A DNA stretch of 64,000 bases, taken from an uncultured Candidatus Saccharibacteria bacterium (GTDB lineage: Bacteria > Patescibacteriota > UBA1384 > DTJR01). This document shows, in pieces, positions 24,284 to 52,231 of this stretch. The position numbers were made by a program, and so were the translations under genes. The notes beneath the pieces are model-generated. The model saw only the letters and a list, made by a program, of their open reading frames with translations, had not been told where the DNA came from and did not search any database. The stretch spans positions 195,511 through 259,510 of the forward strand of contig CAZAOT010000002.1 in NCBI GenBank assembly GCA_964487045.1. The letters are read 5' to 3'. Each line of letters starts with the position of its first letter. Position 1 is the first letter of the stretch.

Positions 24284-24667
24284 ATGAAAGTGATTGCATT
24301 TGGAACATTCGATCCAATCCATAAAGGCCATGAAGACTTTTTAAGGCAAGCCAAGAAACTCGGGCATTTAATTGTAGTAGTTTCTCACGATGATAAGATT
24401 AAGCTTGAGAAGAACAGGGATCCAAGAGAGTCCAGCCATGATAGACTTGAAAAAGTAAAAGCTCTAAATATCGCTGATGAAATAATTATAAGTGAACCAG
24501 GAGAGCAATTTAATTTGCTCGAAAATATAAATCCCGATATTATTGCTCTCGGTTACGACCAGAAAATCCCTGAACCCTTGAAAAATAAGGTAAAAAAGTA
24601 TAATATAATAACGCTCAAGCCCTTTAAACCGGAAGTCTATAAGTCAACGCTTCTGACTAAAAAGTAG
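24284..24667 (+). CDS. Cytidylyltransferase-family nucleotidyltransferase (HxGH; RibL/TagD-like small adenylyl/cytidylyltransferase).
   Basis: 127 aa. GTFDPIHKGH has the (H/T)xGH motif of the CTP_transf_like superfamily, as in archaeal-type FAD synthetase RibL. Confidence 0.7.
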   Translation: MKVIAFGTFDPIHKGHEDFLRQAKKLGHLIVVVSHDDKIKLEKNRDPRESSHDRLEKVKALNIADEIIISEPGEQFNLLENINPDIIALGYDQKIPEPLKNKVKKYNIITLKPFKPEVYKSTLLTKK

Positions 24668-24696
24668 TTACTTGATTATTTACAAATTTAATTGGG

Positions 24697-24771
24697 GGCC
24701 TCATCATCTAGTGGTTAGGATACCAGGTTTTCATCCTGGACACCGGGGTTCGACTCCCCGTGAGGTCACCA
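24697..24771 (+). tRNA. tRNA-Glu(TTC).
   Basis: Hand-folded cloverleaf. Acceptor GGCCTCA/TGAGGTC (one G-U pair), D-arm ATCT-AGTGGTTAG-GGAT, anticodon stem CCAGG/CCTGG with loop TTTTCAT (anticodon TTC), T-arm CGGGG-TTCGACT-CCCCG. CCA is encoded. Confidence 0.8.
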
Positions 24772-24819
24772 ATTAAATTTGTCTAGTAAGGAGTAGGTTT
24801 TTGTTCCACCCAAAAACCG

Positions 24820-24860
24820 CATCCTGGACACCGGGGTTCGACTCCCCGTGAGGTCACCAT
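24820..24860 (+). repeat. Direct repeat of the tRNA-Glu 3' half (anticodon-stem 3' strand through CCA), att-like scar.
   Basis: CATCCTGGACACCGGGGTTCGACTCCCCGTGAGGTCACCA is identical to 24732-24771. The preceding 5' portion does not match the tRNA. Confidence 0.7.
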
Positions 24861-24861
24861 C

Positions 24862-24890
24862 AGAAAATCACCCGAAAGGGTGGTTTTTTG
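24862..24890 (+). terminator. Hairpin terminator (cacccGAAAgggtg plus T6) directly abutting the duplicated tRNA-Glu 3' end. Also one arm of an inverted repeat with 27763-27800.
   Basis: atcagaaaatcacccgaaagggtggttttttgatgg. GNRA-type loop, 5-bp GC-rich stem, then T6. Confidence 0.55.
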
Positions 24891-24910
24891 ATGGCTTTGA
24901 TCCACGGGAA

Positions 24911-24990
24911 AAGAGTCGAAGGCCGGAGTGAGCGAAGGCGAACGAGGCGGGGTCGACGGAAATTTCAGCAGGAATTTACCGGTGACCGAC
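24911..24990 (+). repeat. Conserved tRNA-associated element, copy 1 of 3. Ends in a degenerate tRNA T-arm/acceptor-like segment.
   Basis: ggccggag...ggcggggtcgacgg-aaatttcagcaggaattt-accggtgaccgactccccgtgcg parallels 52131-52215 and the reverse complement of 38318-38398. The central hairpin is preserved by compensatory changes. Confidence 0.5.
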
Positions 24991-25073
24991 TCCCCGTGCG
25001 CTTTTCGGACGCAACGAAAAGCTAATGTAATTCACCAACTATTTTTTATTTCTCAACTTTAGGGTATTAGATT

Positions 25074-25988
25074 TTAGTAGACATAAACCCAAAAAGCTTT
25101 ACCCGAAGGTAGCTTGGAAACGGATCCAATCTGACCGCTTGGACAGTTAGCTGATACTTGCGTATCAGAAAGTAGTTTAAAATACTCACAAGACTGACTA
25201 GCTAATTCGTTATCAATTATATAAACATTATTAAGGATCCTGTTCTCACTAGACCACCCATCAATAGATTTGATCTGACCATCTATTTCCAGCTGAATTT
25301 GGGATTTTGATTTTTCATTAACCGACCAAAGCAAATTCCATCCCTTAGAAACCTTGTAAAGATTCACAATTACTAAATCTACTGGAACAGATATTGTTTT
25401 TGCAGATCCGGGATTATATACATAATACCCATAGAACTGGCTCGCATTAAACGAAGAACCACCAGGATATAAAAGCCATTTGTTGTTTACGCCATCGAAT
25501 CTATACAGATAAAGACCATTTTGCGCAAAGAAGTCACCTGACACCTCTTTTGTATTTCCAAAAACACTAAATCCATGGGGAAAAGATATCGTCTTATAAT
25601 TTGCTCCACTCGAAGTTGATGGTAATGATGATGACGCACCAGAAACGTCCCTTTCCCTCATAGGACCTATTTCACCAAATACTCCCGATTCTTTAAAATT
25701 AAATGGTTCAAATCCAATCAAGCTAATTGCAGGTGAACTTGTCTTGAGACGATAGTCCCCCGCACCCGCATCCTCAAATTGCGGATCAGCAAATACCGAA
25801 TGATTTTCTAAATTGTTGATTCCATTAGCTTGCCACAGATTTTCAAGCCATGACCATGCTCTTAATTTTGGTCCGCCATTATTTATAAAAACTGATGGAT
25901 GACTTGTATCTTCACCAGAATAATCAAAATACAAATTATAGTCCCTTTGCGCAATCATTTTTGCGAGCATCTCCCTCTCTAAGCCCAC
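25074..25988 (-). pseudogene. 5'-truncated gene for a surface protein: C-terminal beta-helix-like end plus the conserved C-terminal domain shared with 12846-14942. The upstream part is replaced by a duplicated segment.
   Basis: The ORF has no signal peptide and begins mid-domain (…ADPQFEDAGAGDYRLKTSSPAI, typical of the end of a parallel beta-helix protein). Its C-terminal region (YGYYVYNP...GWNLLW...AFWVYVY) is paralogous to the C-terminus of the 698-aa secreted protein. It abuts the 780-bp duplication at 26042. Confidence 0.45.
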
Positions 25989-26002
25989 AGCACAATCAGA
26001 GT

Positions 26003-26392
26003 TCAGATAAAGTGGGCGAGTTGGATTATTTGGATCACCTGGGCGCGAGCTTTCACATCCGCTTTCTTCATATGATAAAGTTCACCAACCATCTCAAGTG
26101 TTTCTCTGCCTGTCATAAATTCATCAACGGCTGCAAACTGGCCAGCCAATCCTATTTCATGCCTAACCTTAGAGCCTTCAGTGCAAACATCAAATCCAGC
26201 AACCTCCATCGTCCCACTATCTGGCATCGTAAGTGTTGCTAAAAGTCTTACTAAAGTAGTCTTGCCAGCTCCGTTTGGACCTAGCAATGCATGAATCGTG
26301 CCCTTTTCGATATCCAGGCTCAATCGATCTAAGGCAACAGTTTTGCCAAAACTTTTTGTAATATCCTTTACGTGAATAATTGCTTGAGCCAT
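26003..26392 (-). pseudogene. Truncated copy (first ~120 codons) of the ABC transporter ATP-binding gene found intact at 39324-40262.
   Basis: The protein is identical to the 39324-40262 product through ...MKKADVKARA and then diverges into junk. It lies inside the 780-bp duplication. Confidence 0.7.
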
Positions 26393-26824
26393 TTTACCTA
26401 GATTCCTTAATTTTTCTCTTAACCTTTTCCTTCATTTCAACCACCCTGGATGAAAACGCCGTCATTTTGTCCAGAAATTCATTTAGTTTCTCAGCTTCAA
26501 TCATATGAAGCATTTCCCCAACACCAAAAAATACAAACTTATCACCGGTTTTAATTTTTAATTCATCTCGAGCTTCAATAGGCACAACAATTTGGCCTTT
26601 CTCCCCGATAGTTCCGACTCCGTAAAATTTCTTACATTGATGCATTTTTTCACTATTTGATTATTTCCTACATTTCATACATTACATACTAAACATAATG
26701 ATGTCAATAAAAAAATGAGCATTTGCCCATTTTTTTTACGGTACCTCTGGCGCTTATTCGACTCCCTCGGCTGCCAAATATCAACAAAAAAAGAGCTAAT
26801 GCTCGTTCTTTGTTGATCTGGTAC
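26042..26824. repeat. Near-identical ~780-bp duplication, copy A. Copy B is 39903-40693. It ends with 6 nt of the tRNA-Arg(TCG) 3' end.
   Basis: Nucleotide identity from ggcgcgagctttcacatcc... through ...gttgatctggtac, with only a few indel/SNP differences in the last ~40 bp. Includes the abrB-like gene, the ABC ATPase 5' portion and the tRNA-proximal hairpin. Confidence 0.85.
26394..26645 (-). CDS. AbrB/SpoVT-family DNA-binding protein (duplicate copy of 40264-40515).
   Basis: 83 aa, identical to the 40264-40515 product. GEKGQIVVPIEARDELKIKTGDKFVFF is a swapped-hairpin AbrB-type domain. Confidence 0.65.
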   Translation of the reverse strand: MHQCKKFYGVGTIGEKGQIVVPIEARDELKIKTGDKFVFFGVGEMLHMIEAEKLNEFLDKMTAFSSRVVEMKEKVKRKIKESR

Positions 26825-27012
26825 CCTACTCCGGTCTATAAACCTCATCAGATACCTTAGTCACTATACCTTGTAGAAGCACTTTTTTCAAGAAAAAATG
26901 GCACACAATGGCACAGTATAAAAAAGGGGTGTTCCATTTTATATTTGACTTAGTTGGTCCACCCGTCATCCATTAAAATTTGATAGATATTTCTCATTTC
27001 TTTATTGCACTA

Positions 27013-27041
27013 TTGACAATTTATGACATATGTTCTATATT
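27013..27041 (+). promoter_or_regulatory. Sigma70-like promoter TTGACA-17-TATATT upstream of the DUF134 gene.
   Basis: TTGACA at 27013-27018, a 17-nt spacer, TATATT at 27036-27041. An AAAGGA Shine-Dalgarno at 27054 lies 5 nt before the ATG at 27064. Confidence 0.5.
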
Positions 27042-27063
27042 CAATCTGTAATGAAAGGAATAT

Positions 27064-27582
27064 ATGCGAGGAAGACCTAAGAGAAAAAGATGTATAAACT
27101 TTGTACCAGAGATTACTTATTTTAAGCCAGCGGGTATCCCCCTTCGTGAACTCCAAGAAGAGATACTTTCTTTAGATGAGGCAGAAGCTCTTCGGCTTAC
27201 GGATATTGAAGGACTTGACCAAGAAACTGCCGCAAAGAAAATGGGTATAGTCAGAATAACTTATCTAAATATCATCCATAGCGCGCACAAAAAAGTTGCA
27301 CGAGCTTTAATATACGGAAAAAGCATCCAATTGAAGGGAGGTGATGTTATAATGCCGAACCTAGATGGAACTGGACCGCAGGGTCAAGGACCGATGACAG
27401 GCAGAGGCCAGGGTAGAGGAATGGGTAGAGGACAAAATGCACCTGGGCCAAGAGCTGGCGGAAGCGCGGAATGCACTTGCCCAAGTTGCGGCGAGAAAGT
27501 TGCTCACACTAAAGGAGTGCCTTGCTCGCAAACCAAATGTCCGAAATGTGATACGCCAATGCGTGGCGTGTTCTGTAGCTAA
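27064..27582 (+). CDS. DUF134 (UPF0251) DNA-binding protein fused to a C-terminal DUF5320-like Gly/Arg-rich zinc-ribbon domain.
   Basis: N-terminal [15 protein letters not shown]...FKPAG...[22 protein letters not shown] is DUF134-like. The C-terminus has [23 protein letters not shown] followed by CTCPSCG...CPKC. Confidence 0.7.
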
Positions 27583-27624
27583 GAAAAAAGAGTCGGATGC
27601 GTACGACCGGCTCTTTTTTTGTTT
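27583..27624 (+). terminator. Rho-independent terminator of the DUF134 gene.
   Basis: Stem gagtcgg/ccggctc with a 10-nt loop, followed by TTTTTTTGTTT immediately after the stop codon. Confidence 0.6.
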
Positions 27625-27661
27625 AAAATTTATAATAAGGAGAAAATTGGCTAATTTTTAA

Positions 27662-27680
27662 CAGGTTGGAGGGCCGAGTG
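27662..27680 (-). repeat. 19-bp copy of the tRNA-Lys(CTT) 3' end. Proposed left att direct repeat of the integrated element.
   Basis: ttggagggccgagtgggat is identical to 38222-38240, the 3' acceptor/T-stem of the intact tRNA-Lys. A further 9-nt copy (ggccctcca) at 27790-27800 is fused to an inverted copy of the 24862-24890 terminator. Confidence 0.6.
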
Positions 27681-27872
27681 GGATCCTCGGCGATAATAGC
27701 TTTTTCAAATGAACATCGCCTTGCGCACCCATCCTTCGGATGGGTTCAATTCCGAGACAATCTTCCATCAAAAAACCACCCTTTCGGGTGTTTTTCTGAT
27801 GGAGGGCCTTATCTTACGCTATTATAACCTTGATTGAAGATAATGAATACTGGAAAGCACTCGGTTCTAAAC

Positions 27873-28817
27873 TTAACTATGCTTTTTAATCAAACTATCA
27901 AAACTTTGTTTTTCAACATTTTGAGGCATTGAAGATCTTGGGACAACAGTGTATCTCACCGGCTTATCGCTATCCCTGTTTTTCTCAGGAATATGCTTTA
28001 TGACAAGACCCTTTGGCAATTTAAAAGCTAAAAGGAAAACGATGATGTCCTCGCAGAAAGGAAATAAATTTTCCCACATTTTTGATAAATAAGATGGAAT
28101 ATCTAAATCGTTAATTCTTGGTTCAACCCCAATTGGTTGATTCTTTGAGTCTAAGTGGTATTCAATGCAAGGAAGTTGAAAACCCGAATGTTCAATTTGT
28201 GTCCGTACATCAATGAATTGCGAAAACCACTTCTCTCTATCATCTTTAACCATATCAATGAAAAATTTCATTCCTCCACTTGGATTATTTTCTAAAAACT
28301 TTTTACTTTCCTTATCAAAGTCACTGTCTGATTTAAATATAAACGAAATTTTAAAATCTAAAAATTTTGCAAACCTAATTATGTTTTGATTAGCGATATA
28401 ACCTCTGATAAAAAAATCTTTGAACCAAATATTGAGATTGTCATCAATGGATTCATCTACTCTCAAAGTCTGGTTTTCCACTTTTACAATCTCTCCGCTT
28501 TTGATCTTTTGTCGGTGTTGAACAAGAAGGTTTACACACTCTTCCATTACAATTCTCGCTTCAATTAAATTTTGCAGGACTGGTCCATAAAATTTATCAA
28601 ACTCTCTACGATCCTCTTCCGTTGAGAATACAAAATCTCTTATCTCTAAAATCTGCATTCTCATTCTTGCAGTAAATAGATCTTGCGACCCAAGGTCAGA
28701 GACCTTTACTAAAGTATGTAAAATTTTCTGTTCCTTTTTGTTCATACAACACTTTTTATATTTCTTTCCGCTTTTGCAAGGGCAGGGATCATTTCTTTTT
28801 ATCTTTGTCATTTTCAA
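27873..28817 (-). CDS. SEC-C motif-containing protein of unknown function.
   Basis: N-terminal SEC-C metal-binding motif PCPCKSGKKYKKCC, followed by about 280 aa with no recognised family. Located inside the tRNA-Lys element. Confidence 0.55.
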   Translation of the reverse strand: MKMTKIKRNDPCPCKSGKKYKKCCMNKKEQKILHTLVKVSDLGSQDLFTARMRMQILEIRDFVFSTEEDRREFDKFYGPVLQNLIEARIVMEECVNLLVQHRQKIKSGEIVKVENQTLRVDESIDDNLNIWFKDFFIRGYIANQNIIRFAKFLDFKISFIFKSDSDFDKESKKFLENNPSGGMKFFIDMVKDDREKWFSQFIDVRTQIEHSGFQLPCIEYHLDSKNQPIGVEPRINDLDIPSYLSKMWENLFPFCEDIIVFLLAFKLPKGLVIKHIPEKNRDSDKPVRYTVVPRSSMPQNVEKQSFDSLIKKHS

Positions 28818-28931
28818 AAATTATTCTCCTGTCAATATTATTAGCCATAAACCACCAACCATGCAACAAGAGAACTTATTTTATTCAAACATTAAATACG
28901 TTATACTTAGGATAACTTAGGAGGGAATAAG

Positions 28932-30431
28932 ATGTTACCAGAGGAACAATCAAGTGCCAGCGCCTTATTAACAGTAAGTGAAGCCTCGGAAATATTAGGG
29001 CTACATCCCGATACCCTTAGAGATTGGGACAACTCTGGATTCTTGAAATGTATTAGAATCGGAAAAAGAAGAGACAGGCGTTACCAGAGAAATGATATTG
29101 AGAGGATCTTGTCGGAAGGCACCATTCAAAGAAAAACAGACCAAGGAGAGAGACTAAGACTAATTGAAGAGAAATATCACGTTAATTACCCCGAAACAAA
29201 TTCGGCTACATATACAAGTTTAGTTAACTATAGAGCGGACTTAAAAAGCCCCTTTCAAGGATGGTACAACTACAAGGAAGGATATTCTCTTGAGTTGAAT
29301 CACTTGATCTTTCAATATTTCGGCACGAAGGCAGGTGATTTAATTCTTGATCCCTTCTCGGGAAGCGGCACAACATTACTTGCAGCCAAACAGATAGGTC
29401 TCAGATCAGTCGGATATGAAGTAAATCCTTTTTCTCATTTTCTTTCTGTTGTTAAGACTAGAGATTATTCACCAACCGATTTAAAAACAATTAAAGAAAC
29501 CCTCTGCAATTTTAAAAAGGAGTCGCTGAAGAATGTTAAGTTTGACAAACCAAAGTTATCCACAATTGATAAACTATTTAGTTCTGAAACATTATCTGAA
29601 TTGATGGCAATCAGACAATTCGTTGATAACCTCCCAAGCCAAAAAACAAAGGATTTATTTTTCTTGGCTTGGTTGTCGGGTTTAGAAGAACTATCAAATT
29701 ATAGAAAAGCAGGAAATGGACTCAAAATTCGGAAGACTAAGAATCAAACAACACCAGATCCAAAAAAAACAATTATTCAAAAGATTTCATTAATGATTGA
29801 TGACATCAGCTCCCAGACAACAAAGTCATCCAGCAATGATTTAGAGCCAGTTATCTATAGGAAGTCTTCTCTCAATCTTATTGAAGATATAGAGAAAGGA
29901 TCCGTGAGAGGGGTGATATTTTCGCCACCCTACGCAAACTGCTTTGATTACACAGAAATCTACAAAATTGAATTGTGGCTAGGTGGGTTTGTGCACGACT
30001 ATTCCGATCTGAAGGAGTTGAGAATGGAGACAGTAAAATCTCATCTCAACAGGAAATTTGAAAATCATGGCGATCTTGATATTCCAATCTTGGCAAAGAT
30101 TATAGGAGAAGTTTCTAGGTCAAAGATTTGGGATAAAAGGATACCTAAAATGATTCAGGGGTATTTTGAAGATATGGGGCAAGCACTTTCTCAGCTGTAT
30201 TTAACATTAGAGAAGGGAGGGTTTTGCTGTGTGATTGTAAGTAATTCATCGTATTCCGGCATTATCATTCCAACCGATTTAATAATCTCAGAGATTGCCG
30301 AACAAATAGGATTTACTATTAGAAAAATAGATGTCGCCCGATTTATTATAACCAGCTCGCAGCAATACCACACTACAAAGAGATGGGGTAAATATTTAAG
30401 AGAAAGTATAATTTACATGGAAAAAATATGA
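28932..30431 (+). CDS. DNA methyltransferase (amino-MTase; probably N6-adenine) with an N-terminal MerR/excisionase-type HTH. First of two paralogous MTases.
   Basis: HTH SEASEILGLHPDTLRDWDNSGFL. SAM motif I LDPFSGSGTTLLAA. Catalytic motif IV SPPYANCFDY about 180 aa later. Confidence 0.75.
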   Translation: MLPEEQSSASALLTVSEASEILGLHPDTLRDWDNSGFLKCIRIGKRRDRRYQRNDIERILSEGTIQRKTDQGERLRLIEEKYHVNYPETNSATYTSLVNYRADLKSPFQGWYNYKEGYSLELNHLIFQYFGTKAGDLILDPFSGSGTTLLAAKQIGLRSVGYEVNPFSHFLSVVKTRDYSPTDLKTIKETLCNFKKESLKNVKFDKPKLSTIDKLFSSETLSELMAIRQFVDNLPSQKTKDLFFLAWLSGLEELSNYRKAGNGLKIRKTKNQTTPDPKKTIIQKISLMIDDISSQTTKSSSNDLEPVIYRKSSLNLIEDIEKGSVRGVIFSPPYANCFDYTEIYKIELWLGGFVHDYSDLKELRMETVKSHLNRKFENHGDLDIPILAKIIGEVSRSKIWDKRIPKMIQGYFEDMGQALSQLYLTLEKGGFCCVIVSNSSYSGIIIPTDLIISEIAEQIGFTIRKIDVARFIITSSQQYHTTKRWGKYLRESIIYMEKI

Positions 30432-31702
30432 ATAAAGTTGACCTTGAAATAGTGGAAGTAGACGAACTCCCCCTGAACCCAATAAGGAATCGCGTTTACT
30501 CCATTAACTCAAAAAATATCGGTGTATATACACACAGCTTTTTTAAGTATCCCTGTAAGTTTATCCCTCACATTCCAAGATGGGCAATAAAAAAATACCT
30601 TAAAGGCGACGGAGCGGTATTAGATCCTTTTTGTGGGTCAGGAACAACACTTGTAGAAGGTATCATTCTTGGTAAAAATTCTTATGGCATAGATATTGAC
30701 CCGTTTGGAAGAATGCTTACTCTAGGAAAGACCGAGCGATTTTCAGAAAAGGAAGTCATAGAGCTAGAAAAGATTGGTAGGGAAATAGTCAGAAAATCTA
30801 AAGATATGAAATTTGAGAAAAAATATATTCCACCAATTCCAAATATTGAGCATTGGTTTAGTCAACAAAGCATAGAATCTCTTGCCTCCATAAAAAAAGC
30901 TATTAAAAAATATTCTTTAAAAAGTAAATACGAAAATTTCTTTTATATAGTATTTGCTTCAATTATTAGGAAAGCATCTAAAGCCGATGAAGCGTCACCT
31001 AAACCATACATCTCATCCAGATTCGGTAAAAAACAATGCAATGTTTTTGATTTATTTGAGAAATTCTTTGATAAATATCTAATAAAGATTAAAGAGTTCA
31101 GCGCCATTGCCCCAAGAAAAAATATTTCAAAGATTGTCGGAAATGATGCGAGAAAATTCAAAAAGATGCCAGAGTCAATCAGCTTAGCTATAACCTCTCC
31201 CCCGTATATAAATGCATTTGATTATGTCAGAACACTTAAACTTGAAAACTACTGGCTTGATCTTGTTAACGAAGAAAAATTGTTAACGATTAGGTCTAAT
31301 AGCGTTGGCACAGAAACGATAGCTAAGAACGAACGTAATAAGCTTGTAATTAGCGATATTGAATCCAAGAAGCTCAGACACGCAGTAGAGGAGATAGCCG
31401 AGAAGGATAAGCGGAGATCAATCGTCGTAACCAAATATTTTGAAGACCTAGCGCTAAATCTTCAAGAGGTTTATAAGTCACTTAAGAAAGATGGGGTCTA
31501 TGTAATTGTTGTTGCAGATAGTAATATAAGAAATGTAGAGGTTCCAACACACGAAATACTTTGTGAGCTAGGCAAGAAAACTGGTTTTGTGGTTGAGAAT
31601 ATCTTTGCATATGTTATAAAGAACAGATATCTCCGAATTCCCAGAGAGGGACGAGGAGGGTTTATGCATAACGATTGGATAATATGCCTGAAGAAGAAGT
31701 AG
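30428..31702 (+). CDS. DNA methyltransferase (amino-MTase), paralogue of the upstream MTase.
   Basis: Motif I LDPFCGSGTTLVEG. Motif IV SPPYINAFDY. The 4-bp start/stop overlap with the upstream gene implies translational coupling. Two MTases suit an asymmetric Type IIS site. Confidence 0.75.
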   Translation: MNKVDLEIVEVDELPLNPIRNRVYSINSKNIGVYTHSFFKYPCKFIPHIPRWAIKKYLKGDGAVLDPFCGSGTTLVEGIILGKNSYGIDIDPFGRMLTLGKTERFSEKEVIELEKIGREIVRKSKDMKFEKKYIPPIPNIEHWFSQQSIESLASIKKAIKKYSLKSKYENFFYIVFASIIRKASKADEASPKPYISSRFGKKQCNVFDLFEKFFDKYLIKIKEFSAIAPRKNISKIVGNDARKFKKMPESISLAITSPPYINAFDYVRTLKLENYWLDLVNEEKLLTIRSNSVGTETIAKNERNKLVISDIESKKLRHAVEEIAEKDKRRSIVVTKYFEDLALNLQEVYKSLKKDGVYVIVVADSNIRNVEVPTHEILCELGKKTGFVVENIFAYVIKNRYLRIPREGRGGFMHNDWIICLKKK

Positions 31703-33477
31703 CAGTTGACGCTTCACAATCCAGAAGAGAAGTTTGGCTCATACCCAAGCGATGTAACATTCACCAAATTATTGGTATGGTTGATATTCTTGCGACACAA
31801 GATTTCAATGAACGGATTTGGAATCATGGTAAACAAGAAGCCCTAGGTACAAAAATGGGACTTAGAAAACTTACAGATTCGGGTAGATCAATTACTGGGC
31901 AATCTGTTAGAACTTTACTTGCGAATGGGCCTAAGTATCTAGGTTTTGTTTATATTGATGACGGATCAAAAAAAATATTTGTTACAGACATTGGTTTAGA
32001 GCTAATAAGGGAGAATCTTTTACATTCGGAAAATAATAGCAACCTATCCGACTGGGAAAATAATAATCCAATTGATTCTTCGGAAGCATTTAAGAAACAA
32101 CTTTCAAAGTTAATATTAAACAATCCTCTTGTACGTACTGAGACGAATGGTGTATTAGTCTTCCCCTTTAGGAATACAGTAAAGCTCGCTTTAGACCTAG
32201 AATATTTAGATATTGAAGAACTTGCCTACATAGTATTTAGCATGAAATCAGAAGATGAGTATGACTTGATTAAGGAGAGAATAATTAATTTCCGAGCATT
32301 GACCCCTTTGCAAAGAGATAGAGAGATTGAGGCTTATTCCAGAACCGAAGCTGGTCAGCTGACACTAGTTAAAGCCCCATCTGCTGGATATTACATGTCT
32401 TTTTGTTGCGCTTCGGGACTTTTTGAACGAACTCGGGTTAACGCGAATAGGACTAGGCAGCCGCTTGCGGCAATTAAATTGAGAGATCAAGATGGGGCTA
32501 TCGCCCTTGTTGAGAAATACCAAGCGGCTAGAATATATGATTTCAAAGAAAACTTAAAATTATGGATTGAATACTACTCCTCGCCTAATCGTCTCTTTCC
32601 TCCCCACGACATTACAATTAATTTCAAAGCAAATAAAGGCATATCTTTAGTTGAAATTTTTAAGGATGGAGTAGCTGTCGGTGGCGATATTATTGATGAA
32701 AATAATTCCAAGTTAGTCGTACCAATGTTCCCCGATGAACCCTATTCACTTATTGCTTATGATTCTGATGCGAGCAAGAATTATGAAAAACATATCTCTG
32801 TACAGAACGAAACAGGGGATGTTGAAATAGACCTCGGTACAAGCGAACCAACAGCAGAAGTTAGAACCTCCGAAAATATCAAAAAACTTATCCTGGAAAT
32901 GTTTTCAAGTAAAAGTGGCTTTGACAGTGAATATGAAAAAAGATTAAACCTCTTGCTGAGGAGATTATCTTTAAACCGCTTTGACAGTATTAGAAAGGGC
33001 GGACGACTAGAGTTTCTTTTCAGCGAATTACTTGAGCAACTAAAAAGCAATGGTGTTGTAGATTTCGTGAATTGGTATGGGTCAGTAAAACAATACGGTC
33101 TTGCCTACCCCGCACCTGGAGGTCTTAACGGTAACCCTGATATAGTATTCGGGATAGACAATATAACGGTTGTTCTTGAGCTCACCACAATAAGGGCCAA
33201 TGCTGGGCAATGGGCCGGATCTGAGGCCGCTTCTGTCCCTGATCACATTCAAAGATATCAAAGGGAGACTGGAGCAAAAGATAATATTTTAGGTATCTTT
33301 TGTGCTCCTAGCATCAACGACAGAGTAAGGAATAATTTTGCTGCTCACTCCGAAAGGTCCGGAAGAGCTCATATCTGCCTCTCGGTTGAAGAGATGCTAG
33401 AATTGCTTTCCCGGGACAGACAACACATAATTCAAGAACTTAGAGATTTACAAAGTCAGTCTATCTCCAGAGACTAA
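31675..33477 (+). CDS. Probable Type IIS restriction endonuclease (AlwI/PleI/N.BstNBI-family-like).
   Basis: 600 aa, overlapping the second MTase gene. The C-terminal region has a PD-(D/E)xK-like PDIVFGIDNITVVLELTT. The size and the two-MTase context match GAGTC/GGATC-type IIS systems. The family assignment is from memory, not from an alignment. Confidence 0.5.
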   Translation: MDNMPEEEVAVDASQSRREVWLIPKRCNIHQIIGMVDILATQDFNERIWNHGKQEALGTKMGLRKLTDSGRSITGQSVRTLLANGPKYLGFVYIDDGSKKIFVTDIGLELIRENLLHSENNSNLSDWENNNPIDSSEAFKKQLSKLILNNPLVRTETNGVLVFPFRNTVKLALDLEYLDIEELAYIVFSMKSEDEYDLIKERIINFRALTPLQRDREIEAYSRTEAGQLTLVKAPSAGYYMSFCCASGLFERTRVNANRTRQPLAAIKLRDQDGAIALVEKYQAARIYDFKENLKLWIEYYSSPNRLFPPHDITINFKANKGISLVEIFKDGVAVGGDIIDENNSKLVVPMFPDEPYSLIAYDSDASKNYEKHISVQNETGDVEIDLGTSEPTAEVRTSENIKKLILEMFSSKSGFDSEYEKRLNLLLRRLSLNRFDSIRKGGRLEFLFSELLEQLKSNGVVDFVNWYGSVKQYGLAYPAPGGLNGNPDIVFGIDNITVVLELTTIRANAGQWAGSEAASVPDHIQRYQRETGAKDNILGIFCAPSINDRVRNNFAAHSERSGRAHICLSVEEMLELLSRDRQHIIQELRDLQSQSISRD

Positions 33478-33650
33478 TCTTTTTTACGACTCGGAAAACT
33501 CGGTTTTTCTATTGATGAATCAGGGGCATTATCCAAAAAGCTCAAATAGCTCTAATTCCTTTTTTAGTGACTCTATAAACTCTGATTTGTTTTTTTAATG
33601 ACTCAGAAAACTCAGGTTTTCGCTATTACCTGCCGATATCAAACGTTTTT

Positions 33651-34892
33651 TTATAGTGAGGTTATCGTTTCGCCTAGTGGTGTGCTAAGTTGCCATTGAG
33701 GTCCATTGCTAGTTCCCATTTCATTTATCAACCCAAGCTCGTGTTGCTTCATCCAATCTTCAGGCGCTTTATAGGCATAATCTTGGTTTTTAACTAGGTT
33801 CATGCAATATGAAATATCTTTACAATCAGGTGGTAATTTAACCTGACCATCTTTATCTCTAACTTTTCCATAGTTTAGATCCCAGTCAATATATTCTTGA
33901 ATTTTTTCATCGCTATCAAAGAGATGAAAATAAGATGATTTATCCTTAGAATGCATTTCTCGCGCAGCATTTTTAAGTTCATCGTCCGTTGGTTTTCTTG
34001 AAAAAACGATCATTTTCCAAGTCTGCCCAGTTTGTTGATAACTTTTTACCTCTCTATAACTCAAAGCGGTAATTGGAGTGTTGGTAGGCGTTGAAGTTTG
34101 CGTTTTGCTCTGTTCAGTTTGCTTTGGGCTTGGAGTTTCTGTTGGGACTTGAGTTTTGTTTTCTATACTTTTAACCTTAGTTGGTACTTCCTTTGGAATA
34201 TAGTTTATGGCTATATCCTTACTCTCACTTTGATTCCCAGCTTTATCGCGAGCAATAATCTGAAATTTGTTCTCTCCCTTATCAAGGGCAATTCCTTTAA
34301 TGGTAAAGCTATTACTCTTAACCTTAACTTTTTTAATTTCTTTTGTATTTTTTATTACGACAATTTCCGCTTTTGCCTCGGAGCTTCCCTTGATATCTAG
34401 CTTATTTCGCTCCGTGGGGCTTTGTGGCGCTTCAATTGTCAGGGATGGGGATATTGTATCTAAAACCACTGATGCTTCATTGCTCTGCCTGATCCTGCCC
34501 TCCATATTTGTTGAACTTACCATGAGTTTATTTTCGCCTTCTTTTAGCTCTAAACTCTTAAATGAAAATTTGCCCTGATTATCTGCTTTGGCTTCTTCCT
34601 TTAATTCAGAATTGAAATAAATTTTCACCACCGAATCATTAAAAGCATTGGTTCCGGAAATTATAAGCGCTTTTTGATTCGTTGGACTTTTAACCGCATC
34701 TAAGTATGGAATTCCTTTTGCAAATACTGTGAATATTATTACAGAGGCAATAGTTAGAGGAACGAAGATCAAGGAAATGACTTTCCTATTTGAGTAACTT
34801 TTAAGAATTCGTTTAAAAACTAAAGGCTTAATCATTCCAACAATAAATGCTATTCCAAAAATGAAGAACAGCGCCATAAACAATGAGTCCAT
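33651..34892 (-). CDS. Membrane-anchored surface protein with Ig-like (Big-type) domains.
   Basis: 413 aa. N-terminal TM segments, then repeated beta-sandwich-like segments (…ISGTNAFNDSVVKIYFN…KGENKLMVSS…, …KGENKFQIIARDKAGN…) and a Thr/Pro/Gln-rich linker. Confidence 0.55.
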   Translation of the reverse strand: MDSLFMALFFIFGIAFIVGMIKPLVFKRILKSYSNRKVISLIFVPLTIASVIIFTVFAKGIPYLDAVKSPTNQKALIISGTNAFNDSVVKIYFNSELKEEAKADNQGKFSFKSLELKEGENKLMVSSTNMEGRIRQSNEASVVLDTISPSLTIEAPQSPTERNKLDIKGSSEAKAEIVVIKNTKEIKKVKVKSNSFTIKGIALDKGENKFQIIARDKAGNQSESKDIAINYIPKEVPTKVKSIENKTQVPTETPSPKQTEQSKTQTSTPTNTPITALSYREVKSYQQTGQTWKMIVFSRKPTDDELKNAAREMHSKDKSSYFHLFDSDEKIQEYIDWDLNYGKVRDKDGQVKLPPDCKDISYCMNLVKNQDYAYKAPEDWMKQHELGLINEMGTSNGPQWQLSTPLGETITSL

Positions 34893-35009
34893 AATATCCC
34901 CCGTTTAAATTAATTTATAGTTGGTCCAAACAATTAGAATGCTATATAATCACTGGTCAATATTCAAGTAGAGGAGTATAAAGTAAAAAGAATTAAAATT
35001 AAAATTAAT

Positions 35010-35660
35010 ATGAAATATTCAACTAGCACAACAGACAAAATCAAGAAGTTGTGCGAATTCATACAAGGACAGATTGAGCTTAAAGGTAAATTCAAAGTTC
35101 AGTTTGACGACACACATGCAGGAATTGCCAATGATACTAAAAATGTTATTGAGCTCTTAAGAAAAAATGAATGCCTGTTCAGAACAGTAGAGAAAAGGAC
35201 AATAGTATACCCAGAGAACTTTAACGAAGAACATGATTTCTTTACTCTTGAGATAGATCCAATAAAATTTAACAACTATATCAGAAATGAACTACGTATC
35301 CTTCCTCCAAGTATTGAAAGTATTGGTGAAATTAAGAAAATAGAATATCTGGAAAATTTCAGATCATTTTCTTTAAATGATAGAAAAAGTGAAATTCAAT
35401 TAAAGGGCGGAAAAAAGATTGCTGATATTCTTGAGCTCCTATGGAAGAATAGAAGAGTATCTAGAAAAGGTAGGGTTGATCCACTACGAATTGGAGAATT
35501 TTATAATATTGAACCTCTTATGCAAAATAGCAGAACAGTAAGTACAGAAGCTTTGCTCAGAAGTATTGGGAGGATTAATACTTTCTTCGTAGAAAACTAT
35601 CTACCAATGAGAATAGAAAGTAAGAATCAAGAAAAGTTTCGCCTAGAGATTAATTTTTGA
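35010..35660 (+). CDS. Hypothetical protein (element cargo).
   Basis: 216-aa ORF with typical AT-rich coding composition. No family recognised. Confidence 0.5.
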   Translation: MKYSTSTTDKIKKLCEFIQGQIELKGKFKVQFDDTHAGIANDTKNVIELLRKNECLFRTVEKRTIVYPENFNEEHDFFTLEIDPIKFNNYIRNELRILPPSIESIGEIKKIEYLENFRSFSLNDRKSEIQLKGGKKIADILELLWKNRRVSRKGRVDPLRIGEFYNIEPLMQNSRTVSTEALLRSIGRINTFFVENYLPMRIESKNQEKFRLEINF

Positions 35661-35788
35661 CAAGCGTTAGACAAAATTGGACAAAATTGACAGAGTTTTA
35701 GATTGAAGTTAGGGTGTGCTAAGCCGCATACGCTGAATCGTCTATTTTGTCTTATTCTGTAAAGCTGCCTGCGTGGTAATTTTATTCT

Positions 35789-36031
35789 ATGAATGAGAAT
35801 AACAATTACTACAAATCTTCCGACCTTGGCTGTTCAGCGGCATTAATTACTGCTGGTTTTGAATTAATGACGATAGAGAAAAATGACCCCAAGAGGGTTA
35901 TTTTTGTTTTTGATATATCAAAAGAGATACAGCTTTCCGCGGAAGACTATTTGTCTGACAGATTGCAGGTCAGTGCCCGAAGATATTTTGAAAATCTACG
36001 AGTTCTTAAAAGCAGAATTTACGCAGACTAA
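35789..36031 (+). CDS. Hypothetical small protein (element cargo).
   Basis: 80-aa ORF. No family recognised with confidence. Confidence 0.45.
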   Translation: MNENNNYYKSSDLGCSAALITAGFELMTIEKNDPKRVIFVFDISKEIQLSAEDYLSDRLQVSARRYFENLRVLKSRIYAD

Positions 36032-36177
36032 AAATAAAAAATGAAACTGCAACAAAATCAAACTAATCAACGCGAACTTTCAATGGAAGAATTGGAAGAC
36101 CTTTTCGCAGCCCAACTAGCAGAGATTTTTGTTGAGCAGATTTTAGATGAAGAAAAAAATAAAGATGAAAATTACCA

Positions 36178-36564
36178 ATGGACGAGTACGAACTTAAGTC
36201 AAAGCTAAGAGGTTATTTCAATTTCCCGAGATCACTTATTATTGATTTAGCTACAAATAATATAACGCCTGATCAATTTACTCTATTTACTGTTTTTCTA
36301 GGACTAGCTAGCTGGGACAGTAGAGGAAAAAACTATGCAACTATAAATACTTCTAATCGCGAGATTTCCAAAATACTCCACTGGAATAGAAATAAAATCG
36401 GGCTTAATAAGGGGTTACTATTTGGCCGCAAATATATTGATTTACTAAATGGAAAAAACCGCCAACTCAAAATAAGAATCAATAACCCTGAGCTATTTTA
36501 CTCAAAAATTACAGGAGAAGTGTCCAAGACGAGAGCCACTAAGGTTAATCCAAGGCCCACTTAA
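36178..36564 (+). CDS. Hypothetical protein, possibly a winged-helix DNA-binding or replication-associated protein (element cargo).
   Basis: 128-aa ORF directly upstream of the recombinase gene. Contains an HTH-like segment (NREISKILHWNRNKIGLNKG). Weak support. Confidence 0.4.
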   Translation: MDEYELKSKLRGYFNFPRSLIIDLATNNITPDQFTLFTVFLGLASWDSRGKNYATINTSNREISKILHWNRNKIGLNKGLLFGRKYIDLLNGKNRQLKIRINNPELFYSKITGEVSKTRATKVNPRPT

Positions 36565-36713
36565 CAGATTAAATTTCTTTATTTAATTTTCTTTGAAGAT
36601 AGCAATGTATTAATGAGAATAAATATTTTAATAATAAGGAGGCAAAAATGTTAGAATTGTTATAGAAGCAATAAAAAAAGTATAAACACTGGATAAATAA
36701 TTAATCAAAAAAA

Positions 36714-38264
36714 ATGAAATGTTTAATTTACTCACGAGTTAGTACCGAAGACCAAGCAGAAAAGGGACGATCAATTGGTGACCAAATCAAAATGTGCAAA
36801 AGATATGCTGATGACAACGGCTATCGCATTATAGATATATTCAAGGATGAAGGAAAAACTGCTACAAATATGAATCGGGCAGGGCTACAAGATCTAATCA
36901 TTAAATGTCAGGAAGAAAAGGATATAGCTTGTGTACTTGTACAAGACACGGATCGTCTTGCAAGGAACACATCCGATCATCTCCAAATAAAAGCGATTCT
37001 GAAAAAAGCAGGAGCAAGGGTAATCTCTATTAGCCAACCAATGCTTGATGACGAAACCCCCGAGGGTCAATTTATGGATTTGGTTATTGCAGGGGTAAAT
37101 GCCTTTCAGTCAAAAATTACAGGAAGAAAGGTGAGTAAATGCATGAAAGAGAAATTTCTTGAAGGTGTGTGGCCTAGCTGGGTAACCGTTGGATATATTA
37201 ATGACGATATCGGAACTCTAGAAAAACCTATGAATGTAATCTCAGATGATAAATTCAAACAGCCACTTATAAAGGAAGCTTTTAGATTATTCTCAAAAGG
37301 AATCTATAGCGTGGAAGAAGTCAACGACATAGTCTTCAAAAAGGGCTTAACCGGAAGGCATGGAAAAAAGATGTCTCCATCAGAGCTAAATAGGGTATTG
37401 AAAAACCCTTTTTATTTTGGATTGATGCGGTGGAACGGATTGGAAAAAATGGGTACGCACACTAAGATCATTACTAAATCTCTATTTGACCAGTGTCAGA
37501 ATGTTTTTATTGAACGCAATATGATGGCTAATCGTGAAAGAAAACATAACTTCCTATTAAGAGGTTTTGTCTACTGTGGAACTTGTGGAAAAAGATTGAC
37601 CGCTGAGTATCATGGCTCTAAATTTTATTACCATTGTGCTTCAAAACTTCATAGCAACAAAGGACAAAATTTTGATGGGGATACTACCGAAGCGAGAATT
37701 GAGCAATTGTTTGACCAACTTAAGTTACCAGATGACTTTACAAAAAAAGTATTTTCAAAAGCGGAGGAAATACTTAAGAATTCGCGTGTTGAAGTTAACC
37801 AGACAAAAAGAACTCTTAATGCACAAAAAGCAAAATTAGAAACAAAGAGAGACTCAATTGAAGATAGATTACTTGAAGGAGTAATTACCTCTGATGTATA
37901 TGTAAGGCAACATAATAGCGTTGAGGAGCAAATAAAAAATATTGAGAAACAGCTTGATGACGCAAATCATAATAAAAATGAGAATATAAAAGTTTTTGAA
38001 AAATTGATGTTTTTATCTGGAAATTTAGGAGAAGCTTACCGACTAGCTAATCCAAGAATCAAAAGGCATTACCTAACAATATTTTGGGATAGAATTGAAA
38101 TCAAAAATCATAAGATAAAAAAAGCGGTCCCGACAAAGACCTACTTAAAATTATTTCCTGGCATGAACTATAACAAACCTGAAAATTTGGTTGCGAACCA
38201 TAAAATTATAAAAGAACGAAATTGGAGGGCCGAGTGGGATTCGAACCCACGACCAATTGCTTAA
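36714..38264 (+). CDS. Large serine recombinase (integrase) of the tRNA-Lys-associated element.
   Basis: 516 aa. Resolvase-type catalytic domain (LIYSRVSTEDQ...DQ...DRLARN), a recombinase domain, a zinc ribbon (CGTCGKRLTAEYHG...YYHC) and a coiled-coil tail. The last 14 codons read into the tRNA-Lys 3' end, so the gene overlaps the att core. Confidence 0.85.
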   Translation: MKCLIYSRVSTEDQAEKGRSIGDQIKMCKRYADDNGYRIIDIFKDEGKTATNMNRAGLQDLIIKCQEEKDIACVLVQDTDRLARNTSDHLQIKAILKKAGARVISISQPMLDDETPEGQFMDLVIAGVNAFQSKITGRKVSKCMKEKFLEGVWPSWVTVGYINDDIGTLEKPMNVISDDKFKQPLIKEAFRLFSKGIYSVEEVNDIVFKKGLTGRHGKKMSPSELNRVLKNPFYFGLMRWNGLEKMGTHTKIITKSLFDQCQNVFIERNMMANRERKHNFLLRGFVYCGTCGKRLTAEYHGSKFYYHCASKLHSNKGQNFDGDTTEARIEQLFDQLKLPDDFTKKVFSKAEEILKNSRVEVNQTKRTLNAQKAKLETKRDSIEDRLLEGVITSDVYVRQHNSVEEQIKNIEKQLDDANHNKNENIKVFEKLMFLSGNLGEAYRLANPRIKRHYLTIFWDRIEIKNHKIKKAVPTKTYLKLFPGMNYNKPENLVANHKIIKERNWRAEWDSNPRPIA

Positions 38265-38297
38265 GAGGCAACTGCTCTACCGCTGAGCTATCGGCCC
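38223..38297 (-). tRNA. tRNA-Lys(CTT).
   Basis: Hand-folded. Acceptor GGGCCGA/TCGGCCC, D-arm GCTC-AGCGGTA-GAGC, anticodon stem GTTGC/GCAAT with loop CTCTTAA (anticodon CTT), T-arm GTGGG-TTCGAAT-CCCAC. CCA is encoded. Confidence 0.8.
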
Positions 38298-38317
38298 ATG
38301 CATTTCTATTGTTAAAA

Positions 38318-38492
38318 GTTCGAATCCGATTCGGTCACCCGTCAAAATCTGTTGATTTTGCGGTCGACCCCGGCTCGGCCCGTCGGCCTGCGCCTCTTTG
38401 ACGTTTAGCTCGCCATTCCACCCGTCGAGCCGTCAAAGCCCACGACCAATTGCTTGAAGTGCGACAACTGCACAACCCGTGAGCTATCGGCC
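38318..38492 (-). repeat. Conserved tRNA-associated element, copy 2 of 3 (38318-38398), followed by a degenerate copy of the tRNA-Lys 5' two-thirds (38437-38492).
   Basis: Minus-strand read: gggccgatagctcacgggttgtgcagttgtcgcacttcaagcaattggtcgtggg is a degenerate tRNA-Lys 5' part. Then ...aggccgacgggccgagccggggtcgaccg-caaaatcaacagattttg-acgggtgaccgaatcggattcgaac matches the elements at 24911-24990 and 52131-52215. The 70-aa ORF predicted here is rejected. Confidence 0.5.
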
Positions 38493-38550
38493 CAATCTTG
38501 AATTATTCTACCGTATTCGAGAGAATATTTCAATTCAACAAGACGCTTTT

Positions 38551-39327
38551 TTAGACTGCTCGCCTGAACAAACGTGATGAGATTGGACCAAATACAACTA
38601 TAATTGCTAATATCCATATCAAAGTATATAAAACAGAGCTGGATTCAGCGCCACCAGTAGAAAGATATCTCACGGCATTAACAACATGAGTCACAGGTTG
38701 GTTCTCGGCAAATTTTTGAAGCCATGAAGGCATTGTTTGTACTGGGACAAAGACCGAACTGGCAAATACCAATGGAAATATCCAAACAAATCCTGCTACT
38801 TGCGCAGTCTCAGAGTCTTTCACCGCCAACCCAATTGTCAGAGAAATCCACGAGAAAGCAAAACCAAATAAGACTACTAAACCTACAGCGGCCAAAGCAT
38901 GCCAAATCCCCTGCTCGAATCTAAATCCAAGTCCCATACCGACTCCAGTCATTATCAAAACGACCATAATATTACGGCAGGCGTCAGCCAATGTTCTACC
39001 GGCTACAATCGATCCGCGTGAAATAGGCAGACTCAAGAATCTATCTACCACGCCTTTGCCCAAGTCTTCCGCCATACCTACACCAGTCTGAGCTGATCCA
39101 AATAGCGCAGTCTGGGCTAAGATACCAGGCAGGAGAAAAACAATGTAGGAGCTCCCGCTAGTTGATCCCGACACCGCTCCACCAAAAACATAATTAAAAA
39201 GAAACAAGAACATAACTGGCTGAAACGCAGAGAAAAATAATAGTTGAGGCGTTCGCCAAACCCTTGTTAAGTTACGCTTAGCGATTATCAGAATATCGTG
39301 TAAAAAATTATATAAATTTATTATCAT
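38551..39327 (-). CDS. ABC-2 type transporter permease.
   Basis: 258 aa with 6 predicted TM helices, overlapping the ATPase gene upstream on the same strand. Confidence 0.7.
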   Translation of the reverse strand: MIINLYNFLHDILIIAKRNLTRVWRTPQLLFFSAFQPVMFLFLFNYVFGGAVSGSTSGSSYIVFLLPGILAQTALFGSAQTGVGMAEDLGKGVVDRFLSLPISRGSIVAGRTLADACRNIMVVLIMTGVGMGLGFRFEQGIWHALAAVGLVVLFGFAFSWISLTIGLAVKDSETAQVAGFVWIFPLVFASSVFVPVQTMPSWLQKFAENQPVTHVVNAVRYLSTGGAESSSVLYTLIWILAIIVVFGPISSRLFRRAV

Positions 39328-40262: not shown

Positions 40263-40263
40263 T

Positions 40264-40515
40264 TTACCTAGATTCCTTAATTTTTCTCTTAACCTTTTCC
40301 TTCATTTCAACCACCCTGGATGAAAACGCCGTCATTTTGTCCAGAAATTCATTTAGTTTCTCAGCTTCAATCATATGAAGCATTTCCCCAACACCAAAAA
40401 ATACAAACTTATCACCGGTTTTAATTTTTAATTCATCTCGAGCTTCAATAGGCACAACAATTTGGCCTTTCTCCCCGATAGTTCCGACTCCGTAAAATTT
40501 CTTACATTGATGCAT
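40264..40515 (-). CDS. AbrB/SpoVT-family DNA-binding protein, likely regulator of the downstream ABC exporter.
   Basis: 83 aa. GEKGQIVVPIEARDELKIKTGDKFVFF. Located 1 bp upstream of the ABC ATPase gene. Confidence 0.65.
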   Translation of the reverse strand: MHQCKKFYGVGTIGEKGQIVVPIEARDELKIKTGDKFVFFGVGEMLHMIEAEKLNEFLDKMTAFSSRVVEMKEKVKRKIKESR

Positions 40516-40645
40516 TTTTTCACTATTTGATTATTTCCTACATTTCATACATTACATACTAAACATAATGATGTCAATAAAAAAATGAGCATTTGCCCAT
40601 TTTTTTTACGGTACCTCTGGCGCTTATTCGACTCCCTCGGCTGCC

Positions 40646-52085: not shown

Positions 52086-52130
52086 GAAAAAATTACTCAG
52101 TAATTTTTGAGGTGGAGCGATCGGGAATTG

Positions 52131-52215: not shown

Positions 52216-52231
52216 AAAAAGAAGGAAATAT

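Follow-up and report, generated by a model that had tools for sequence, protein, structure and literature searches.

A segment of 783 nt that ends at a tRNA-Arg gene is present twice in the window, the whole 64,000-nt stretch of DNA analyzed here: once at the start of a transporter operon and once against a truncated gene for a surface protein. How did the second copy arise, and did a site-specific recombinase acting at the tRNA gene place it there, as a sequence-only reading of the window had proposed?

The two copies and their settings

The copies form a direct repeat in the same orientation and were detected by seed extension, MAFFT and self-BLAST, after which their limits were measured exactly. 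Throughout, we compare the window with the metagenome-scan relatives L081 and L082 (~78–80% nucleotide identity) and with L173 and L174 (~82%).

26042–26824, no strand: copy A (ectopic), 783 nt, with a hairpin, a decayed tRNA-Arg remnant, a terminator, an abrB-like gene and ATPase codons 1–117, at a site that is empty in L173/L174
39912–40694, no strand: copy B (native), 783 nt, placed by alignment and by synteny with L081 and L082

The sequence-only reading had described a recent-looking duplication of about 780 bp, which is present by all three methods. Its description of the repeat holds, the coordinates of copy B aside: these had been given as 39903–40693 and are off by 9 nt at the start and by 1 nt at the end. 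Over an alignment of 784 columns, the copies differ at four: two are substitutions, one is a 1-nt deletion and one lengthens an A-run by a single A. All four fall in 26786–26808, in both arms of one hairpin, and the initial 750 nt are identical. Such a resemblance cannot be chance. The homology has sharp edges, with no similarity past either boundary, and the copies are spaced 13.87 kb apart with 13.1 kb of single-copy DNA in between.

The genes within and beside the two copies, together with the tRNA gene at the right end of copy B, are as follows.

25074–26041, minus strand: 5'-truncated surface/secreted-protein ORF (ORF 25074–25988, its frame open up to the junction 26041/26042)
26003–26392, minus strand: truncated ABC ATPase ORF, 117 native residues followed by a 12-aa foreign tail
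26394–26645, minus strand: AbrB/MazE-fold gene of copy A, 83 aa, intact (Pfam)
38551–39327, minus strand: ABC-2 permease gene of the native operon (Pfam), syntenic in L081 and L082
39324–40262, minus strand: full-length ABC ATPase gene, 312 aa (Pfam); the repeat starts inside this gene, after codon 117
40264–40515, minus strand: AbrB/MazE-fold gene of copy B, 83 aa (Pfam)
40689–40765, minus strand: tRNA-Arg(tcg) (ARAGORN, Rfam), whose last 6 nt (40689–40694) are the right end of copy B

The native operon runs on the minus strand through the abrB-like gene, the ABC ATPase and the ABC-2 permease, and copy B is its start. The two abrB-like genes give the same Pfam match and are identical, because the gene lies within the 750-nt stretch that the copies share without a difference; both are 82–84% identical to their counterpart ahead of the ATPase gene in L082 and L081. 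They also share one upstream region, in which a terminator, a TTGACA box and the operator-like block GTGTAAnGTATGAAAnGTAGGAAA are conserved between the window and these two related genomes, in agreement with the earlier proposal that each abrB-like copy has its own promoter region.

The ATPase fared differently in the two places. Copy A had been said to hold only about 120 of its codons, and codons 1–117 were found; the stub retains Walker A, has lost the signature motif and Walker B, and is probably a pseudogene. Next to it, the surface-protein ORF is conserved only in its C-terminal ~180 aa. Its homologs measure 450–540 aa, and it is 5'-truncated because it is without their N-terminal signal/TM region, which bears out the claim that copy A adjoins a truncated surface-protein gene. 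That gene had also been called a paralog of the secreted-protein gene. The C-terminal domain of ~190 aa is indeed common to it and to the 698-aa ORF at 12846–14942, at 28% identity, and the likeness is confined to that domain. No similarity was found to the Ig-domain protein at 33651–34892, considered as another paralog, or to the 881-aa gene of an island in L082, considered as an origin of the stub.

Gene order in the relatives identifies the setting of each copy. L081 reads abrB, ATPase, permease, HTH gene and tRNA-Lys. L082 reads tRNA-Arg(tcg), 3.4 kb with the 881-aa gene, a 12-nt copy of the tRNA-Arg 3' end (CCGGGCGTACCA), a terminator, abrB, ATPase, permease, HTH gene, tRNA-Lys, a 124-aa ORF, a cytidylyltransferase gene, tRNA-Glu and UvrB. 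The orthologous tRNA-Arg in L082 thus hosts a 3.4-kb island, on whose flanks 12 nt of the tRNA 3' end recur. In the window, a decayed remnant of the tRNA end occupies the position of the L082 12-nt repeat, upstream of the abrB terminator.

26739–26766 in copy A and 40609–40636 in copy B, minus strand: decayed tRNA-Arg 3'-end copy, GCGCCAGAGGTACCG, orthologous to the 12-nt remnant of L082

Because of this synteny and of the remnant at the matching place, copy B is the native copy, on both its sides. The earlier assignment of copy B to a native context agrees with the order abrB–ATPase–permease–tRNA-Lys kept in both L082 and L081. The remnant itself is the trace of an older insertion at tRNA-Arg, one that predates the duplication since it is found in both copies.

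Copy A lies in the spacer between tRNA-Glu and a DUF134 gene, in a setting that can be compared with L173 and L174.

24697–24859, plus strand: tRNA-Glu (24697–24771), a 48-nt insert and an exact 40-nt copy of the tRNA 3' end (24820–24859), forming the left edge of the variable spacer
26825–27012, no strand: unique sequence right of copy A, 188 nt, with a weak minus-strand promoter-like site (26891–26863) and an ATG at 26848
27064–27582, plus strand: DUF134/UPF0251 gene, which with its promoter and terminator (27013–27629) is a conserved backbone unit

Both relatives read cytidylyltransferase gene, tRNA-Glu, terminator, GC-rich element, DUF134, terminator and an intact tRNA-Lys, and their DUF134 protein is 91% identical to that of the window. 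The distance from tRNA-Glu to the DUF134 promoter is 326 nt in L173/L174 versus 2,241 nt in the window, where the extra material of ~1.9 kb consists of the surface-protein stub, copy A and the 188 nt of unique sequence. On this evidence from gene order and spacing, the site of copy A is shown to be empty in L173/L174. The L173 spacer could not be aligned with the pieces of the window spacer above the level of shuffles, so the limits of the 1.9-kb insertion are approximate. The window is thus a conserved backbone (tRNA-Glu, short spacer, DUF134, tRNA-Lys, ABC-2 permease, ABC ATPase, abrB-like gene, tRNA-Arg(tcg)) with two separate insertions, one of ~1.9 kb and one of 10.56 kb. Within this backbone, the top species-representative match of the ATPase is 58% identical and comes from Saccharimonadales, and the DUF134 protein is 88% identical to that of a Berkelbacteria MAG.

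An ancestral neighborhood of the surface-protein gene and DUF134, under which a single gene would contain both junctions, has only a weak promoter match and an ATG as its basis. The pairing was not seen beside DUF134 in L168–L176, and we rejected these two genes as ancestral neighbors.

The presence of both copies in one molecule rests on the assembly. In an assembly or population artefact, real copies would have been mislinked across the 750-nt identical stretch or two strain variants merged; the true state could be, for example, a 13.87-kb circle (26825–40694) and a chromosome that reads surface-protein stub, repeat, tRNA-Arg. The 283-kb contig was assembled from an uncultured organism, short reads phase a 750-nt identical repeat poorly, and this alternative linkage is the exact product expected of homologous recombination between the copies. 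However, a graph assembler cannot invent junctions, so both novel ones must occur in the reads, and the assembled order is colinear with L173 (tRNA-Glu, DUF134, tRNA-Lys) and with L082 (tRNA-Lys, permease, ATPase, abrB, tRNA-Arg). The four hairpin differences moreover give each copy a distinct signature, and the 783 bp occur twice whichever linkage holds. We therefore consider an artefact very unlikely.

Junctions and the tRNA-Arg 3' end

The four differences and the right junction both lie at a hairpin.

26774–26822, no strand: long imperfect hairpin of copy A, carrying all four copy differences, its stem extending into the CCA of the tRNA remnant
40644–40692, no strand: hairpin of copy B, directly 3' of the tRNA-Arg end

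The hairpin is ~49 nt long with up to ~20 paired positions and has a predicted stability of −20 to −24 kcal/mol (z-scores −4 to −6). Its arms measure 17/17 nt in copy A and 16/18 nt in copy B, as the four differences alter both. These differences bear on the age of the duplication. To call it recent, as had been done from the sequence alone, is plausible, yet gene conversion could also maintain the identity of the copies. An old duplication would then have been homogenized, with the hairpin end as the edge of a conversion tract. Conversion tracts typically fade near the edge of homology, and the confinement of all four differences to the last 40 nt, next to 750 identical nt, is in line with such a history. 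Against it, no decayed homology is present past either boundary, the gene on the left flank is another one, conserved in its own right, and the compensating changes in arm length look like hairpin-specific mutation and not like residual old divergence. We regard homogenization of an old duplication as improbable; it bears in any case on the timing and not on the origin of the copy.

At the left junction (26041/26042), ATPase codon 117 is joined to the interior of the surface-protein ORF, with a match of only 3 nt, CCT. At the right junction (26824/26825), copy A reads TGGTAC/CCTACTCC versus TGGTAC/GCCCGG in the tRNA gene, and no common sequence is present past the 6 nt. The tRNA share of the repeat is exactly these last 6 nt, GTACCA (tggtac on the plus strand); that the repeat ends with the last 6 nt of tRNA-Arg had been noticed before, and the ARAGORN prediction of the tRNA at 40689–40765 agrees. 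Positions as near to a tRNA 3' end as the right junction make up ~0.14% of the window, and chance placement of this breakpoint 6 nt inside a tRNA 3' end is unlikely. The right junction also lies 2–3 nt past the foot of the hairpin.

We searched the DNA right of copy A for traces of a tRNA or of an element end. A pseudo-tRNA was rejected: Rfam gave no tRNA-like match at E<=5 in 26825–26900, and when the flank was aligned locally to six tRNAs its scores did not exceed those of shuffled sequence. The flank shares 9 nt with the tRNA-Arg of L168 (TGGTACCCT), a match that goes no further, and the comparison with the region 52309–52430 gave a weak score that was not significant. The flank is unlike the ends of the recombinase element of the window or of L164, and it was rejected as such an end. 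It is absent from the relatives, and an exact search of viral contigs for the right junction came back empty.

The tRNA-end junction had been read as implying an integrase. This is unsupported as stated: the tRNA contributes 6 nt only, and no integrase or element end adjoins the junction. In a more explicit version, a recombinase would have made the tRNA-side junction when an element at the tRNA-Arg 3' end used a secondary site in the spacer or excised aberrantly. It would have carried along 777 bp of host flank, and 26041/26042 would be an illegitimate end or the result of a later deletion. The right junction, CCGGGC/GTACCA, does lie inside the 12-nt repeat that flanks the island at the same tRNA in L082, another genome, and a site-specific nick within this core could have started the event. 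The older decayed tRNA-Arg 3' remnant within the repeat points the same way, as do the many partial copies of tRNA 3' ends nearby (tRNA-Glu, 40 nt; tRNA-Gly, 26 nt; tRNA-Lys, 18 nt), the two large serine recombinase genes in the window and a probability of ~0.001 for tRNA-end placement by chance.

Integrases leave direct repeats composed of tRNA sequence, however, and the 6 nt of tRNA in common compare with proven cores of 12–40 nt here, the tRNA-derived direct repeats measuring 12 nt (L082 island), 18 nt (serine-recombinase element) and 40 nt (tRNA-Glu). To the right of the junction, neither an integrase gene nor the terminus of an element is present; 188 nt of unique sequence lead into the conserved DUF134 promoter. 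Pfam detected nothing recombinase-like adjoining 26042 or 26824, and no tyrosine integrase among ~30 larger ORFs (covering 21.7–41.3 kb in full and the rest partly). For the delimited serine-recombinase element, the crossover site is the T-arm of another tRNA, tRNA-Lys, 860 nt away. At its other end the repeat stops midway through a coding sequence, and at least one further illegitimate junction would still be required. Finally, the foot of the hairpin, at 2–3 nt, is an equally good cause of the breakpoint. Taking both sides together, we find it doubtful that a recombinase made the tRNA-side junction. We also think it unlikely that a recombinase really cut at this end of the repeat and that an element targeting the tRNA 3' end, by aberrant excision or by use of a secondary site, copied a host regulator and its promoter to a new locus. 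If true, an integrative element of an uncultured Patescibacteria lineage would here have captured a host gene naturally and doubled its dosage.

A serine-recombinase element in tRNA-Lys

The sole recombinase gene between the copies (36714–38264) belongs to an element with its own 18-nt core.

27685–38240, no strand: large-serine-recombinase element, 10.56 kb, with the 18-nt core at 27667–27684 and 38223–38240
38223–38297, minus strand: tRNA-Lys(ctt), its 3' part supplied by the element, overlapping the 3' end of the recombinase gene

Positions 1158–1833 of L173 match window positions 27013–27684 and positions 1815–1872 match 38222–38279, with an overlap of 19 nt. The 18-mer TGGAGGGCCGAGTGGGAT has exactly two occurrences in the window, at 27667 and 38223. 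The segment 27685–38240 is a precise insertion in the T-arm of tRNA-Lys because the L173 halves of the intact tRNA overlap in this manner and because the 18-mer occurs twice. Its GC content is below that of the flanks, and its cargo comprises a SEC-C protein, an AlwI-like restriction-modification system with two methylases, an Ig-domain protein, DUF5659 and the recombinase.

The recombinase has 516 aa with Resolvase, Recombinase and zinc-ribbon domains (Pfam), and these domains together with the precise insertion identify it as a predicted large serine recombinase of an integrative element. Homologs at 56–58% identity likewise end inside a convergent tRNA. One of them lies at tRNA-Lys(ttt) in L164, with a displaced 13-nt tRNA copy 11 kb away, and L161–L163 have a homolog at tRNA-Glu(ctc). 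No relatives turned up when viral contigs were searched with the recombinase protein.

The element accounts for 10.56 kb of the 13.87-kb copy spacing, and the copies would be separated by ~2.5 kb once it is discounted. Between it and copy A there are 860 nt, and the two have no end in common. Copy A was rejected as part of the element, whose left end at 27685 is fixed by the 18-nt core and by the intact tRNA-Lys of L173. Judged from these positions, the repeat is shown to be independent of the recombinase element.

In its Resolvase, Recombinase and zinc-ribbon domains, and in the location of the gene at one element end, the system resembles phiC31, Bxb1, A118 and the SCCmec Ccr elements, and it shares with these elements the precise insertion and an empty site in a relative. 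It differs from them in targeting a tRNA gene, with the 3' end of the recombinase gene overlapping and rebuilding the 3' part of the tRNA, and in its 18-nt core identity. A 2020 survey described serine integrases as not known to use tRNA genes and listed 14 predicted cases among 297 (PMC7192596). The present by-product is a delimited serine-recombinase element in a tRNA gene, a target class called unreported for serine integrases (PMC7192596), and it is more notable than the repeat. In this group of Patescibacteria, tRNA genes appear to be targets of serine and not of tyrosine integrases.

Origin of the ectopic copy and comparison with known systems

With moderate confidence, we favor the reading that copy A is the leftover of an illegitimate (non-homologous) rearrangement and is neither a mobile unit nor an attachment-site repeat. 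As expected of a dispersed duplicate, one copy lies in the ancestral context seen in L081 and L082 and the other at the site empty in L173/L174; the junctions are without long homology (3 nt left, none right), and genes are truncated. A simple tandem duplication was rejected in view of the two novel junctions and of the 13.1 kb of single-copy DNA between the copies, and it is for the same reason that a tandem duplication is possible only with a subsequent deletion. Campbell-type insertion of a circle by homologous recombination was discarded as well, copy B being native on both sides and copy A on neither. So was an attachment-site repeat, only 6 of the 783 nt being tRNA and the other 777 lying downstream of the gene.

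We infer the order and type of the events as follows. The tRNA-Arg-proximal 783 bp of the abrB–ABC operon would have been copied into the tRNA-Glu/DUF134 spacer, ~3.3 kb upstream when the recombinase element is discounted, where copy A now lies against the 3' two-fifths of a surface-protein gene. In route (a), the interval between 26825 and the tRNA-Arg end would have been duplicated in tandem, creating the novel join 26824/26825, and a later deletion, joined at 26041/26042, would have removed most of the upstream copy and the 5' part of the surface-protein gene. In route (b), a one-step repair patch with the operon as template would have been inserted into a break in the surface-protein gene. 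The two routes match the anatomy equally well, and neither can be shown from a single genome. The tRNA-side breakpoint was probably placed by fragile or template-switch-prone DNA: here the foot of the hairpin meets a tRNA 3' end that earlier insertions had struck.

Copy A, on this account of illegitimate rearrangement, is an ordinary dispersed segmental duplicate that yielded pseudogenes; the surrounding stretch of this small genome is rich in tRNA genes and prone to islands. Copy A falls outside every mobile-element family because the tests that define them failed, and it is a dead-end fragment of ordinary genome wear and no new kind of element. What it left behind is debris, a dead ATPase stub and a dead surface-protein gene, and one intact additional abrB-like regulator gene with its own conserved promoter/operator. 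Two identical abrB-like genes with their promoter/operator regions could alter the dosage of the regulator for the ABC-2 transporter operon. The 783-bp direct repeats also render the 13.9-kb interval unstable and a trap for assemblers: homologous recombination between them could loop out 13.9 kb with tRNA-Lys(ctt), the working transporter and the restriction-modification island. Taken alone, the repeat is of little consequence, another case of reduced genomes collecting pseudogene debris near tRNA genes.

Among known systems, islands at the extreme tRNA 3' end resemble the repeat in that one of its ends lies in the last 6 nt of tRNA-Arg(tcg) and in that the orthologous tRNA of L082 has a 3.4-kb island flanked by 12 nt. 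The repeat differs from them in being 99% non-tRNA, with no integrase and no second tRNA-derived repeat, and copy A is not at a tRNA gene. Williams is said to have distinguished, in 2002, sublocation classes of integration at tRNA genes. The lambda gal/bio specialized transducing genomes arise by aberrant excision that captures host flank, and they share with copy A the relocation of a host segment that runs from the attachment site to an arbitrary point in a neighboring gene. Here, however, the captured piece is without an attached element, and its re-insertion needs more illegitimate events.

Duplication followed by trimming is a classic pathway for segmental duplications in Salmonella and E. 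coli, with illegitimate or microhomology joins. Copies A and B resemble these trimmed duplications in being near-identical direct copies with sharp ends, one native and one truncated, and in having junctions with 0–3 nt of homology, one of them beside a quasi-palindrome. The difference is that the copies are not adjacent here and that the intermediate tandem state is one that we infer.

tRNA genes and synteny breakpoints

Our comparison of the window with related contigs indicates that tRNA genes are the location of synteny breakpoints within this clade. The cytidylyltransferase gene, tRNA-Glu and its terminator are inverted in L082 (13293-14011), a related metagenome contig sharing the native-copy synteny, relative to the window (24284-24894) and to L173, a relative with an empty element site. 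The DUF134 gene adjoins tRNA-Lys in the window and L173 only, and is convergent with a tRNA-Arg(tcg) in L168 and L169, two contigs examined for its neighbourhood. The window also does not have the HTH gene found between the permease gene and tRNA-Lys in L082 and in L081, which shares the same synteny.

Partial tRNA copies, small elements and other features

24895-24995; 52133-52202; 38298-38395: GC-rich stretch, window
L082 9500-9600; L173 862-925: GC-rich stretch, relatives
L082 6137-9645: 3.4-kb island at tRNA-Arg(tcg)
46436-49801: Ig-domain protein gene (1121 aa), with internal DNA repeats at 46788-48493 (67-77% identity)
52427-53773, minus strand: second large serine recombinase gene, convergent with tRNA-Arg(tct)

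The 3' end of tRNA-Glu is duplicated exactly over 40 nt, 48 nt beyond the gene (insert and copy together, 24772-24859), and the 48-nt insert terminates in a hairpin, GGTTTTTGTTCCACCCAAAAACC. The insert carries the motif TTTGTTCCRCCCAAA, which also comes before partial copies of tRNAs in L082, at 9603-9633 and 13765-13790; its presence at these positions in both the window and L082 suggests that a small element, or the end of one, recurs at the 3' ends of tRNAs. The L082 island is bounded by a 12-nt direct repeat, CCGGGCGTACCA, at 6202-6213 and 9634-9645, and encodes an 881-aa protein with no Pfam match. A decayed remnant orthologous to this repeat is present in the window at 40609-40636 and 26739-26766.

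A stretch of about 100 nt with the form TCGAAGGCCGGAG...CGAGGCGGGGTCG...GTGACCGA recurs next to tRNA genes or tRNA remnants and is GC-rich, whereas the genome is otherwise 40% GC; it has no Rfam match.

The stop codon of the second recombinase gene falls inside a stretch resembling a tRNA 3' half (52408-52433), and L168 keeps a comparable tRNA half and terminator without the recombinase (8630-8690). Separately, 26 nt of the tRNA-Gly 3' end recur at 52195-52220 (96% identical to 52065-52090), 109 nt past the gene and before tRNA-Arg(tct), and the 5' portion of tRNA-Lys is partly copied (82% identical) at 38439-38494, within 38298-38550.

A serine-recombinase element in tRNA-Lys

27685-38240: 10.56-kb large-serine-recombinase element, core repeats 27667-27684 and 38223-38240
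28932-33477: restriction-modification module on this element

The module comprises a 499-aa methylase with a fused MerR-type HTH, a 424-aa methylase and a 600-aa AlwI-like endonuclease. Within the left end of the element, an inverted 38-nt copy of the tRNA-Glu terminator (24857-24894; 97% identical) lies at 27765-27808 and immediately adjoins TGGAGGGCC, the final 9 nt of tRNA-Lys.

The element has inserted precisely within the T-arm of tRNA-Lys(ctt). The recombinase gene extends at its 3' end into this tRNA and restores the tRNA's 3' part. The site is unoccupied in L173 (1815-1872) and in a second relative, L174. Homologues of the recombinase (56-58% identity) on four contigs, L161-L164, likewise overlap tRNA-Lys(ttt) or tRNA-Glu(ctc). 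According to a 2020 survey (PMC7192596), serine integrases using a tRNA as their target were unreported.
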